A stretch of 64,000 nucleotides of DNA, from positions 22,683-86,682 of IMG/VR virus record IMGVR_UViG_3300036770_002019. One strand, given 5' to 3'. Shown piece by piece: positions 50,656 to 63,869 of this stretch. Every line of letters begins with the position of its first letter. The stretch's first letter is position 1. The DNA comes from an uncultured virus (IMG/VR IMGVR_UViG_3300036770_002019) (lineage: Duplodnaviria > Heunggongvirae > Uroviricota > Caudoviricetes > Crassvirales). A program made the position numbers and the translations under genes. The notes under the pieces were generated by a model. It saw only the letters and a list, made by a program, of their open reading frames with translations. It made no database searches and was not told where the DNA came from.

Positions 50656-51029
50656 TTGTTATAAACCTGCATGAAAAGATTTGAATACTTTGGGTAGTAC
50701 TTTATCCATCTCTCATGCTTTTGAATAGTATTAACTACAGTCCCATGCCCTCTGTTTACGTAGTTACCTATAGATACAACATCTATAGAAACTAAGTTTC
50801 TACTTACTGCTTCGAATATAGTCCTAGCAATAACATGCTCATGCAGCCTGGATTTAGATACGACATTATATTTAGATATACCTGTTACTTCACAAGTTAC
50901 ATCCATAACAATATCCATATTTAATCCAGTCTGCAGCTTGTTAATTCTTAGTATTTTATTTCTAGTCAGATCTGGGAGACCTGCGTAAACATAAGCAGGG
51001 ATAGTTATTACTTTAGATCTACAGTACAT
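50628..51029 (-). CDS. DnaA C-terminal-like HTH protein
   Basis: SKSR...VIAR...SIG..VNRGHGTV. Confidence 0.7.
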   Translation of the reverse strand: MYCRSKVITIPAYVYAGLPDLTRNKILRINKLQTGLNMDIVMDVTCEVTGISKYNVVSKSRLHEHVIARTIFEAVSRNLVSIDVVSIGNYVNRGHGTVVNTIQKHERWIKYYPKYSNLFMQVYNKCSTYILDL

Positions 51030-57010: not shown

Positions 57011-57103
57011 AACGTTTGATTTATTGGTTATAAAAAAGACAGCTCACAGGCTAAGGGTCACGTGATTTAATTCCGCGTGTGGAAACTGCCATTATTTAAT
57101 TAG

Positions 57104-57334
57104 TTACGCAGGCATAATCAGCATTATCTGAAACTTACCATTACAAGCCGCTTCTTCGGCTTCTTCAATAGTTTCGTAGCAAGGAATAAAGCCAGCAATA
57201 CCATGCAATTTTTGTTTGCGTTCTTCTCCTGTAAACGTGTCAGTGTATGCTATATCTTGGCTTAATTTAAGCACTGCATACAATACATTGTTGTTGACCT
57301 TGTCTGATTTAAAATTGTCCTGTGGTTGTTTCAT
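57104..57334 (-). CDS. Cassette-like small protein
   Basis: ORF bounded by degenerate attC-like boxes. Confidence 0.55.
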   Translation of the reverse strand: MKQPQDNFKSDKVNNNVLYAVLKLSQDIAYTDTFTGEERKQKLHGIAGFIPCYETIEEAEEAACNGKFQIMLIMPA

Positions 57335-57382
57335 ATCGCTGTGATAGGTGAATAGGGGTGCTTCTATAAGTTAGTTAGTAGC
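57276..57382 (+). mobile_element. Degenerate attC-like site
   Basis: R''-like GCATACAAT and R'-like GTTAGTAGC (57374-57382); the arms are not complementary. Confidence 0.4.
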
Positions 57383-57384
57383 AA

Positions 57385-57639
57385 TTATTTTTTGCTACGT
57401 TCTGTGCAAAATTTACAGTTACCTTTATGACAAATACTTCTACCGCCATACACCATCGATAAAACATATTCACAACTATCTATTTCAACTATTTTATAGC
57501 TTCCGTTGTCATATTCAGTATTTGTTTTGGTGTATTGCTGTTTATTTTCTGGTATTTCACAACCGCAAAAAATGACAGCTACTAACAGCACATAAGCAAA
57601 AGCAAAGGTTCTGTGGTAAATTGATGTTTTCGTTTTCAT
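57385..57639 (-). CDS. Cassette-encoded putative lipoprotein
   Basis: Hydrophobic stretch followed by IFCGC; HKGNCKFC; N-terminus encoded within an attC-like arm. Confidence 0.65.
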   Translation of the reverse strand: MKTKTSIYHRTFAFAYVLLVAVIFCGCEIPENKQQYTKTNTEYDNGSYKIVEIDSCEYVLSMVYGGRSICHKGNCKFCTERSKK

Positions 57640-57713
57640 ATTATATTCTGTTTTTAAGTTAAAATTTTCGCTTCTAAATCTTTGCCTTCGCTTATCTGCA
57701 AAACATTAGCGGC
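57578..57713 (+). mobile_element. attC-like hairpin site
   Basis: GCTACTAAC-AGCAC-ATAAGC-AAAAGCAAAG...CTTTGCCTTC-GCTTAT-CTGCAAAAC-ATTAGCGGC; a 20-nt arm pairs on the minus strand with 17 Watson-Crick and 2 G-T pairs. Confidence 0.7.
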
Positions 57714-57717
57714 AATA

Positions 57718-57927
57718 TTACTCGTGCCATTCAACATAAGTTCCGCAAGTATCGCAGCACTCTTCGTATGTTACTCTTTCGTTGACAATGTACGCTTCAC
57801 AATTAGGACAGTATGCGTCTGCTGTTTCTGATACTAATTCAGCTTGTGAAGGAATGCTGCTGCCAACATCACCTACCCGCAAGGCAGGGTTTATCGGTTT
57901 ATTGGATTTCTGTTCCTTTTTCATCAT
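57718..57927 (-). CDS. Cassette-encoded Zn-ribbon protein
   Basis: CPNC...CDTC; first ~24 aa are encoded by an attC-like site. Confidence 0.65.
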   Translation of the reverse strand: MMKKEQKSNKPINPALRVGDVGSSIPSQAELVSETADAYCPNCEAYIVNERVTYEECCDTCGTYVEWHE

Positions 57928-57992
57928 TAGTGCTATTTTAAAAGTTTGTACTATTTAATCCTGCCCTGTCGAATAGCTGAATGCCGTTATAT
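57859..57992 (+). mobile_element. attC-like hairpin site
   Basis: GCTGCCAAC-ATCAC-CTACCCG-CAAGGCAGGGTT...AATCCTGCCCTG-T-CGAATAG-CTGAATGCC-GTTATAT; includes an extra-helical base. Confidence 0.65.
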
Positions 57993-58027
57993 CCCCCGCG
58001 ATCTTCCCCTCGCGGTGTGGGGGTGTT

Positions 58028-58234
58028 TCATGGGGTGCAATTCGGGAACTTTTCTGTAAATGCTTTAAGTATTTTAGGCAGGTCAATTTCATAAATCATT
58101 GTGTATTCCTGTTCGCCTTGTTCCTTTTGAAACCTTTGTGTTTGCCACCATTTCCATATTTCAACATCGTCAGGAAAACTACGATTAACAGCACTTTCGC
58201 GCTTATCGTCTTCAATCGGGTACGATTCGTGCAT
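58028..58234 (-). CDS. Cassette-like small protein
   Basis: Contains R''-like GATTAAC-AGCAC (58183-58194) near its start. Confidence 0.55.
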   Translation of the reverse strand: MHESYPIEDDKRESAVNRSFPDDVEIWKWWQTQRFQKEQGEQEYTMIYEIDLPKILKAFTEKFPNCTP

Positions 58235-58256
58235 TTTTTTTGTATTAAATTGTTAG

Positions 58257-58330
58257 TACCCCCAACAGGACTCGAACCTGTAACCGAGAGGATAGAAGCC
58301 TCTTGTTCTCTCCAATTGAACTATGGGGGC
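58257..58330 (-). tRNA. tRNA-Arg(TCT)
   Basis: Cloverleaf GCCCCCA...AGAGG-CTTCTAT-CCTCT...TTCGAGT...TGGGGGT-A; has the A20 Arg identity element. Confidence 0.88.
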
Positions 58331-58463: not shown

Positions 58464-58579
58464 TGGTCAGGACAGGATTCGAACCTGTAAACCTACTCCC
58501 CATCTTCGGTTTTTTTACTCTAATGTTTGGAGTGGGGCTAACCACATTAGAGTGCGTCTACCAATTCCGCCACCTGACC
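58464..58579 (-). ncRNA. tRNA-like RNA lacking a canonical anticodon arm
   Basis: Perfect acceptor stem GGTCAGG/CCTGACC, Leu-type D arm, ACAGG-TTCGAAT-CCTGT T arm, 10-bp stem with a 17-nt loop in place of the anticodon arm. Confidence 0.75.
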
Positions 58580-63231: not shown

Positions 63232-63735
63232 TTAAAAGTTTTCTATGAATTTCTCAAAATGATACTCTTGAACGTTAGCTCTAAAAGTATAACTTGATTC
63301 TTCTAAATCCATTTTGTTTTCCTGGTTTTTGTAAATCATTGTTGTTCCATCACTTAGAGTTAATTCCCAAGTGTAAGAATACCAATAACTTCCTACAATA
63401 TACCATCCTCCTTTTTCAGATTCTTGATGTTTATCCCTTTTAATCAGTTTACTACTGACTATTGTAGGATATTCAAAATCTATGATGTCTTCTATATTGA
63501 AGTACAGGGTTTTTTCATTAACTAGTTTTCCTGTACCTTTTTGTAAACAACCTTTTAGACTATCAGGTAATTTGTTAAATAATTCTACTTGATTAGGTTG
63601 TCTAAAGTCTAAAAAAACTGATAAACGACCATCATAAATATGAACATTTATCCATTGGTCACTGAAATGATGTTCAAACTTATGGTTAACTAGACTAGAT
63701 AACCAATCTAGTATTTTTGATTTTAGTTTATCCAT
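63232..63735 (-). CDS. Hypothetical protein
   Basis: 167-aa ORF. Confidence 0.6.
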   Translation of the reverse strand: MDKLKSKILDWLSSLVNHKFEHHFSDQWINVHIYDGRLSVFLDFRQPNQVELFNKLPDSLKGCLQKGTGKLVNEKTLYFNIEDIIDFEYPTIVSSKLIKRDKHQESEKGGWYIVGSYWYSYTWELTLSDGTTMIYKNQENKMDLEESSYTFRANVQEYHFEKFIENF

Positions 63736-63869
63736 TTTTAGAAGGTTTATAGTTAATAAAAAAGGCAGAGAGCTGTATTACTACAACGAGTTACTGGTTT
63801 ATGTTAAAATCCAAGACTAAAAGATTTAAAGAAAAAGGTAACTCTACTCTCTGCTTTAATTATTCCCTC

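Follow-up and report, generated by a model that had tools for sequence, protein, structure and literature searches.

A block of four small open reading frames (ORFs), encoding proteins of 76, 84, 69 and 68 amino acids (aa), lies on the minus strand at 57104-58234 of a 64-kb window taken from the 86,682-bp record of an uncultured virus assigned to Crassvirales (IMG/VR IMGVR_UViG_3300036770_002019), just downstream of a transfer RNA (tRNA) gene for arginine. "The window" refers to this whole 64-kb stretch, and its numbering is used throughout. The original prediction, made from the sequence letters alone, described the block as an integron-like cassette array in which the four ORFs, confirmed here, are separated by four elements resembling the attC sites of integrons. 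Two of these elements, which we refer to as site A and site B, and the cassettes A and B that they head are the subject of this analysis (Table 1).

Table 1. Features of the small-ORF block, in window coordinates
Feature	Position	Strand	Description
Cassette A	57705..57985	-	site A, 69-aa ORF and terminal repeat ending TAAT
Cassette B	57374..57704	-	site B, 84-aa ORF and terminal repeat ending TAAC (57377-57374)
Terminal inverted repeat of cassette B	57374..57395		pairs with 57565-57586, adjoining site B on its sense-strand 3′ side
attC-type site A	57864..57989	-	TAAC box 57989-57986 to GTTG box 57867-57864; loop holds the start codon of the 69-aa ORF
attC-type site B	57583..57708	-	TAAT box 57708-57705 to GTTA box 57586-57583; loop holds the start codon of the 84-aa ORF
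69-aa ORF, zinc-ribbon-like	57718-57927	-	gene of cassette A; Pfam matches weak
84-aa ORF, lipoprotein-like	57385-57639	-	gene of cassette B; phrog_19356 match, E 3.9e-7
76-aa ORF	57104..57334	-	downstream of cassette B; unit 57373..57103; no recognizable site
68-aa ORF	58028..58234	-	between tRNA-Arg and site A; unit 58251..57986
tRNA-Arg(TCT)	58256..58330	-	upstream limit of the block; ARAGORN; Rfam tRNA 66.8 bits

On the minus strand, sites B and A fold to -30.5 and -36.1 kcal/mol, with z-scores of -3.10 and -3.44 and none of 200 shuffled sequences folding as well. The plus strands fold at z-scores of only -1.58 and -1.00, matched by 11 and 31 of 200 shuffles, so the predicted preference for the minus strand was borne out. 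The two elements described from the start as degenerate fold no better than shuffled sequence (z -1.07 and, for the element of the 68-aa ORF, -1.27) and show only a TAAC junction motif. The unit of the 68-aa ORF has TAAC at both bounds with no recognizable site of its own, and the stop codon of the 76-aa ORF sits within a TAAC motif.

We searched the window with R1, a covariance model built from 48 array hairpins of 12 bacterial genomes, aligned as the bottom strand and with the phage-type copy excluded. RNAalifold finds 22 consensus pairs in these hairpins, 16 of which show compensatory double changes, the covariation expected if the hairpins are maintained as structures. R1 matched both sites at full length, site B at 57571-57720(-) with 91.9 bits (E 1.6e-19; the plus strand at the same place scores only 4.8 bits) and site A at 57852-58001(-) with 63.4 bits (E 7.5e-13). 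It found no other match across the 64 kb. With filters off, nothing reached E<=10 in 58180-58258, and only chance-level fragments appeared within 57290-57400 (E>=3.2) and in the unit of the 76-aa ORF (57373..57103; best E 1.2). Two of the four proposed elements thus stand as attC-type sites and the two degenerate ones do not.

The architecture of the two sites is that of attC. The consulted sections of a description of attC (PMC5027507) name AAC as the only conserved triplet and list boxes that complement each other, a spacer left unpaired, terminal structure that varies and a preference for the bottom strand. Site A runs from TAAC to GTTG and site B from TAAT to GTTA, the latter having lost the C of the triplet; we regard both as attC-type box pairs. 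The box is TAAC, not TAAT, in all 13 other copies of site B, and the C is kept in every other copy examined. Against the extended boxes RYYYAAC and GTTRRRY, site A (ATATAAC) agrees at 6 of 7 positions and site B (CGCTAAT) at 4 of 7, and the family consensus, ending UGCUAAC, fits in part. This consensus has four unpaired nucleotides on the 5′ side only, corresponding to the unpaired spacer. It also conserves a 1x1 mismatch and has one T in the 3′ arm that never varies, features that may or may not correspond to the extrahelical bases near the L box through which attC contacts the integrase. The bottom strand's better fold, a central spacer left unpaired and a length-variable terminal loop are all present, and R1 sites range from about 70 to 150 nt. 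A search of Rfam 15 returned tRNAs and chance-level matches only, with no family matching the hairpins. Brute-force fold scans for TAAC...GTTA hairpins proved too noisy and were set aside; they missed sites A and B because each has one degenerate box. Chance hairpins were ruled out as an account of the two sites by the model E-values, the covariation and the junction data below. Elsewhere in the window, a 113-nt near-perfect hairpin at 50831-50943 (-40.3 kcal/mol on the minus strand) starts with TAAC and ends with GTTA without matching R1.

Each cassette ends in a sequence complementary to the stretch that follows its own hairpin. For cassette B, 57374-57395 and 57565-57586 are complementary over 22 nt at 86% (19/22; 20/22 in the family consensus), and for cassette A, 57718-57705 and 57867-57854 form 12 of 14 pairs, two of them G-U, as read by eye. 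This own-end complementarity, which had been claimed over a shorter length, is therefore real and longer than proposed. Other cassettes carry different sequences, each with its 3′ end complementary to the stretch after its own hairpin. Across the bacterial arrays described below, the 8 nt after the GTT box and the 8 nt before the next AAC box form a mean of 5.41 Watson-Crick pairs (19/41 at >=7), compared to 2.79 for the partner in situ (0/57 at >=7) and 2.32 when one site is skipped (0/34). A cassette that starts with the complement of its own site's inner box, as integron cassettes do, is thus found both in the window and in the arrays. The complementarity fits a site that would be split by crossover.

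To place the block among relatives, we could not rely on synteny, because the 80 contigs that share the DNA polymerase of this virus carry none of the four ORFs (tblastn found two neighboring ORFs only, at two loci each). Viral loci were instead collected by searching with the window ORFs, which gave 80 and 10 loci. By blastn, the unit 57708/57720..57374 recurs at 73-82% identity in otherwise unrelated contigs, and several loci share one hairpin only. Against cultured phages, blastn of 57360-58030 matched only 62 nt of the loop of site A, in four records of Cellulophaga phages phi19:3 and phi13:2.

Cassette B is present or absent to the nucleotide. Two loci (L161 and L162) match 57991..57706 at 95% identity and continue directly with 57385..57315 at 90%, precisely lacking the cassette. 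With a caret marking the junction, the window reads TAAT^G to the left and CTAAC^ to the right of cassette B, and the empty site of L161 is a single CTAAC^. The cassette occurs with the same ends in 13 other viral contigs, in 12 distinct upstream contexts; the upstream flank ends in TAAC in 13/13 of these, and the unit itself ends in TAAC in 14/14 when the window is included. The outer parts of the copies are near-invariant (about 165 nt on the 5′ side, 57 nt on the 3′ side), while the middle cannot be aligned. The loop sequence is conserved among copies, and diverged copies of the hairpin (L089, L101, L111 and L115) keep the stem through compensatory changes. Site A is common to L161, L162 and L166-L170 at 81-95% identity, with homology beginning at TAAC^G; in L166-L170 its hairpin is joined to four other gene bodies and homology stops at the GTTA box. 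A 561-bp cassette occurs in two contexts within one genome at 100% identity (L180 2483-3043 and L177 5980-6540), the identity stopping at GTTA on either side. The empty site, the 13 constant-ended copies and this identical cassette agree with the expectation that gene content in relatives would break at TAAC^G. As a general rule for the block it held in part: the junctions of cassette B lie at the boxes, and further breakpoints at 57315 and 57994/58024 lie off site.

Nearly the same stretch is skipped within a single metagenome study, four runs of which have the region in their assembled contigs; one of them, X1, may be where the window itself comes from. In run X2, one contig connects 57368 with 57706, with five other letters between, at a depth of 72, and cassette-bearing contigs have a depth of about 14. 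Contig ends accumulate at 57315, 57374/57378, 57706, 57991/57994 and 58024. None of the 15 joints listed is a backward joint spanning a cassette, and assembled contigs cannot show rare forms; the table of letters between joint sides contains three backward joints, all in the tRNA region (58578 to 58350/58335).

Using R1, we identified 143 sites in 95 sources, namely 94 loci from viral contigs and metagenome-assembled genomes (MAGs) and the record of Polaribacter phage P12002L, with up to 10 sites per contig. P12002L has five such sites, all of them short, and every one lies immediately upstream of a gene for a methyltransferase or a Mom-like protein. The start codons of the 84-aa and 69-aa ORFs lie in the hairpin loops, as predicted, 57 and 64 nt before the GTT box. 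A start codon falls inside the hairpin in 44 of the 57 distinct phage sites with an ORF (median 57 nt before the GTT box), a count biased towards the families of the two window ORFs because the loci were fetched via their homologs. The longest ORF between consecutive sites is on the bottom strand in 34/36 phage intervals but in only 6/44 bacterial ones; in 37/44 bacterial intervals it is on the top strand.

The bacterial relatives of the sites lead to a recombinase. A 21-nt hairpin arm was found at seven places in species-representative genomes, five of them real copies in Bacteroidota MAGs. In one MAG (G002), cassette B lies 110 bp after, and convergent with, a gene for a 378-aa tyrosine recombinase. 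In another (G005), a different cassette stands behind a homologous recombinase and has an identical copy (561 bp, 100%) in a phage-like gene block on another contig. The 378-aa protein exceeds the cut-off of the XerA-type family NF040815 (224.3 against 220) and falls below that of the integron integrase family TIGR02249 (212.9 against 265), with model positions 182-230 unaligned. Its closest solved structures are archaeal XerA proteins. Residues 181-241 of IntI4 (2a3v), which hold the IntI-specific domain, correspond to only 19 residues in this protein, and its N-terminal extension (residues 1-100) has no Pfam match.

Among 301 sampled Bacteroidota genomes, 114 have a match to this recombinase at E<=1e-40 and about 26 have a strong ortholog. 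A conserved site that ends in TATAAAC(A/G)A^GTT(A/G) occurs 66-130 nt past the recombinase stop codon in 24 of 33 ortholog 3′ flanks by a strict pattern (two of them misplaced) and in about 28 of 33 by eye, and the sequence that follows it is the reverse complement of a cassette end. Such an attI-like arrangement, a conserved site beside the recombinase followed by an array, was found in the bacterial relatives only and not in the window. At least one R1 site lies within 1.4 kb in 15 of the 33 flanks, and all 17 matches are on the strand opposite the recombinase. Arrays in which ORFs alternate with hairpins of about 125 nt stand directly downstream in 11 of 12 regions; the twelfth, in G002, is the single phage-type cassette. 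Arrays reach about 25 cassettes (in G017, at least 13 sites in 8.5 kb). In five genomes, most R1 matches fall in one array right behind the recombinase, always on the opposite strand; the adjoining array holds at least 24 of 30 genome-wide matches in G017 and about 22 of 28 in G128. At E<=1e-8, R1 sites occur in 79 of 151 sampled Bacteroidota genomes: in 43/52 with a recombinase match compared to 36/99 without (Fisher p 5e-8, kinship ignored), and in every genome with one of the 16 strong orthologs.

An integron integrase, by contrast, did not appear. None of ten site- or array-bearing genomes examined (five with large arrays and five MAGs) has a protein above the TIGR02249 cut-off, and in the five large-array genomes and G002 the top-scoring protein is the array-adjacent Xer-like one. 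An IntI with the additional domain next to attI, which makes a complete integron, was not found. The original prediction had noted no integrase in the window, and PF00589 had no match even over the full 86,682-bp record. Its proposal of a host or remote tyrosine recombinase fared well in that Bacteroidota hold a candidate with an insertion site and arrays, and less well in that the candidate is Xer-like and lacks the IntI-specific domain. In viral contigs, a single protein query found no such recombinase, and a query with alignment A2 returned four distant relatives, the best 41% identical over residues 106-371, the pattern search being of limited reach. Other Bacteroidota (G049:C33, G073:C44, G061:C10, G062:C33, G069:C14 and G012:C2) show a second layout, with recombinases of about 280-320 aa that are 39-45% identical to the 378-aa protein and whose transcription runs away from neighboring sites of this family, the arrangement of classical integrons.

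Several observations concern the genes and sequences around the two sites. The 84-aa protein has a lipoprotein-like leader. In its family (L081-L105 and window 57385-57639), the leader and the C-terminal end HKGNCKFC...SKK are near-invariant in DNA and the mature middle cannot be aligned between copies, which suggests diversifying selection or repeated replacement of the middle. The zinc-ribbon family matches of the 69-aa protein are all below the Pfam cut-off. The 76-aa ORF shares its leader and opening five codons (MKQPQ), at 57315-57385(-), with a different gene in L161/L162 at 90% identity, and another L161 gene opens with these five codons as well; this homology stops at 57315, which is not at an attC-type site. 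After the 68-aa ORF, a G+C-rich hairpin at 57994-58024 is identical at 31/31 positions in L161/L162, where about 510 nt of other genes, one of them ASCH-like by eye, stand between it and site A; this module boundary does not coincide with an attC-type site either. Codons 9-19 of the 68-aa ORF, at 58181-58213(-), resemble both outer ends of site B (the stem start and ...GTGCTGTTA) with the middle missing and may be a collapsed relic site, which R1 does not detect.

Upstream of the block, Rfam reports a 116-nt tRNA at 58464-58579(-) (42.2 bits) that ARAGORN does not. Contigs from other organisms join 58489/58490 to 58553/58554, indicating an insert of about 62 nt in this copy, which is absent from the other tRNAs and may be an intron-like insertion. 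An identical 69-nt stretch occurs at window 63687-63755 and at genome 20-88, that is, at both ends of the record, which may thus be terminally repeated or circularly permuted though it is classed as linear.

Considering this evidence, we conclude that 57374-57989 probably represents two integron-type cassettes of a Bacteroidota site family, on whose folded bottom strands a host Xer-like recombinase would act in trans. The structure of the sites, their membership in the family, the junction-exact presence and absence of cassettes and the adjacency of arrays and recombinase are results of the computation itself. From the last of these, together with the conserved insertion site and the junction footprints, we infer recombination by the host enzyme, and with it the catalysis, the crossover point and the circular intermediates. 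The proposal of attC-like single-stranded hairpins with cassettes joined at G/TT is thus supported at the level of sequence. The system would work like an integron cassette array, yet it lacks the feature that defines an integron integrase.

In this interpretation, a cassette consists of an attC-type site of about 126 nt (AAC box, unpaired spacer of 4-5 nt, covarying stem, loop, other arm and GTT box), a small ORF and an end complementary to its own site. During infection, the better-folding strand, which in this phage is the gene-sense strand and corresponds to the bottom strand of attC, would fold when single-stranded, and a host recombinase acting in trans would exchange strands at the AAC box. 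Cassettes could in this way be deleted, inserted or swapped among phage genomes and between phage and host arrays, and the shared sites point to gene exchange between these phages and Bacteroidota hosts. As phage ORFs occupy the bottom strand and mostly have their start within the loop, the site in phages also provides a 5′ leader, a start codon and some 20 codons of the gene. Any effect of the hairpin on translation is speculation.

We weighed three other explanations of the same data. The hairpins could be elements of messenger RNA (mRNA), either leaders keeping the start codon within an open loop or sites of processing, in modules exchanged by homologous recombination as for the promoter early stem-loop (PeSL) motifs of T4-type phages. 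It speaks for such elements that the structure forms on the sense strand, that the start codon lies inside the hairpin at most phage sites, that the loop sequence is conserved, that unrelated gene bodies share one hairpin and that PeSL motifs offer a precedent in the portions consulted of PMC2839356 and PMC4122927. In 37 of 44 bacterial-array cassettes, however, the same strand-specific structure lies on the non-coding strand, where it cannot be an mRNA element. The arrays begin at a conserved site behind a tyrosine recombinase gene, the breakpoints fall at one junction rather than being spread over the conserved 150 nt, and own-end complementarity is left unexplained. The block does not match a PeSL, which is marked by an early promoter and a terminator stem-loop between genes. 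The region is not enriched in sigma-70 promoter-like sites (4 against 4.1 expected) or terminator-like sites (3 against 1.4), and neither a promoter-like nor a minus-strand terminator-like site lies within site A or B, the promoter scan being of the sigma-70 type and not covering Bacteroidota promoters. We consider this explanation quite unlikely, although the hairpins may have a secondary RNA role in phages.

It is unlikely, if slightly less so, that these are ordinary attC sites, forming a cluster of attC sites lacking integron integrases (CALIN), that are served by a canonical host IntI with the additional domain while the Xer-like recombinase is a bystander. The boxes, unpaired spacer, variable loop and bottom-strand bias do match attC as the consulted sections describe it (PMC5027507), and the consulted part of Qi et al. 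2023 (PMC9892861) reports that IntI1 recombined an attC of P12002L, the phage in which R1 finds its five sites upstream of methyltransferase or Mom-like genes, which may or may not be the sites of that report. Against a canonical IntI stand the absence of TIGR02249 proteins above the cut-off in all ten genomes and the conserved insertion site directly behind the Xer-like gene. IntegronFinder 2.0, in the sections of PMC9024848 consulted, found hardly any integrons in Bacteroidetes (apart from In0, a single complete one, in Salinibacter), whereas R1 finds sites in more than half of the sampled Bacteroidota genomes. Finally, the cassettes could be non-autonomous single-strand transposons of the IS200/IS605 kind that insert 3′ of TAAC and are moved by an HUH transposase. 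The units here do have ends that bear hairpins, always follow TAAC, themselves end in TAAC and do not duplicate their target beyond the shared box. Head-to-tail arrays behind a tyrosine recombinase gene, a single hairpin per unit in place of distinct left and right end hairpins, and an own-end complementarity that fits a crossover-split site make this explanation highly unlikely.

Returning to integron-type cassettes moved by a host Xer-like enzyme, a number of points weigh against that interpretation. The R1 E-values are rough because calibration was short, and the invariance of AAC and GTT in the hairpin alignment (A1) arises partly by construction because the scan demanded those boxes; the nucleotides next to them, a G behind AAC and a T ahead of GTT, are invariant as well. 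The window holds just two sites, and genome-wide TAAC...GTTA hairpins are no commoner than those of 11 four-letter words used as controls (at -14 kcal, 33 compared to 8-53; at -20, 6 compared to 0-6). Site B has lost the C of its AAC triplet and may be both inactive in recombination and fixed in this phage genome. One hairpin is found with gene bodies unrelated to each other (L126, L101, L096, L166-L170, L171 and L177), for which a single crossover per site is insufficient, and cassette genesis or a second kind of exchange is needed. These shared hairpins and the breakpoints at 57315 and 57994/58024, which are not at attC-type sites, are unexplained by one crossover per site; other processes also shape the region. 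The phage has no recombinase of its own, some MAG contigs may be phage DNA, 63 of the 79 site-bearing genomes lack a strong ortholog of the 378-aa recombinase and the association of recombinase and sites was tested without correction for phylogeny. We observed neither recombination products nor circles nor enzyme activity, and rare circles cannot be seen in assembled contigs.

On a broader view, which we favor by a small degree, the data describe a widespread integron-type system of Bacteroidota that surveys have largely missed. It would use an Xer-like recombinase that works without the additional domain considered essential in IntI; phages would have turned its sites into portable heads for genes that lie on the opposite strand to those of bacterial cassettes, and the host enzyme could redistribute phage accessory genes between phages and move them into the chromosomes of hosts. 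If this is true, lytic phages gain and lose small accessory genes site-specifically, and not only by homologous or illegitimate recombination, and phage gene pools are linked directly to host chromosomal arrays. Recombination of the attC type would be possible with a recombinase that lacks the domain thought to define integron integrases, which bears on how integrons arose from Xer-like enzymes. A start codon within a recombination site would couple mobility and expression, a coupling of which we found no description. In the literature searched, we also found no description of reversed cassettes that start in the loop or of the Bacteroidota recombinase platform, which is not proof that none exists.

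Compared to known systems, the closest likeness is to integron attC sites and CALINs. In both, a single strand folds into a hairpin that has AAC and GTT boxes, leaves a spacer unpaired, varies in its loop and favors the bottom strand; a cassette brings along the two halves of its own R box, small ORFs form arrays and the phage carries no integrase. The portion consulted of Qi et al. 2023 (PMC9892861) reports CALINs in virulent phages, including P12002L, where R1 sites stand beside the methyltransferase genes, and states that some phage attC sites are recombined by IntI1. Its authors predicted the attC sites of P12002L with IntegronFinder/HattCI. Clusters of attC sites in lytic phages are, on the evidence of that portion, already published (PMC9892861) and hence not new. 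The differences lie elsewhere. The array-adjacent recombinase lacks the IntI additional domain and has an N-terminal extension of about 100 aa, the insertion site follows the recombinase gene, cassettes run in the same direction as the recombinase, complementarity of the R box extends to 10-22 nt, and the phage ORF is on the bottom strand and starts inside the site. In the parts consulted, a classification of tyrosine recombinases describes the IntI insertion as "not fully conserved" in the integron-like subgroup (PMC8138268), and archaeal integrons are said to have attI directly downstream of intI and to possess the additional domain (PMC9668308).

Three further systems share parts of this layout. 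The PeSL motifs of T4-type phages, as described in the consulted portions of PMC2839356 and PMC4122927, are likewise short conserved motifs between small accessory genes that mark points of insertion, deletion and replacement, but they are promoter and terminator stem-loops that act via homologous recombination. Here, in contrast, exchange is exact to the junction, the structure covaries and the same sites occur in recombinase-linked bacterial arrays. In pdif modules and integrative mobile elements exploiting Xer (IMEXs), small modules are moved in trans by a host Xer-type tyrosine recombinase on short sites; dif-like sites are 28-bp duplexes, compared to the strand-specific hairpins of about 126 nt that form arrays here. 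The sedentary chromosomal integrons of Vibrio, with near-identical attC repeats of the Vibrio cholerae repeat type, resemble the bacterial arrays in their length and in their similar sites of about 125 nt between unrelated ORFs, and arrays of such similar sites would explain how one hairpin comes to stand with different gene bodies. They belong to another phylum and use another type of recombinase, whereas the sites described here are shared with lytic phages.

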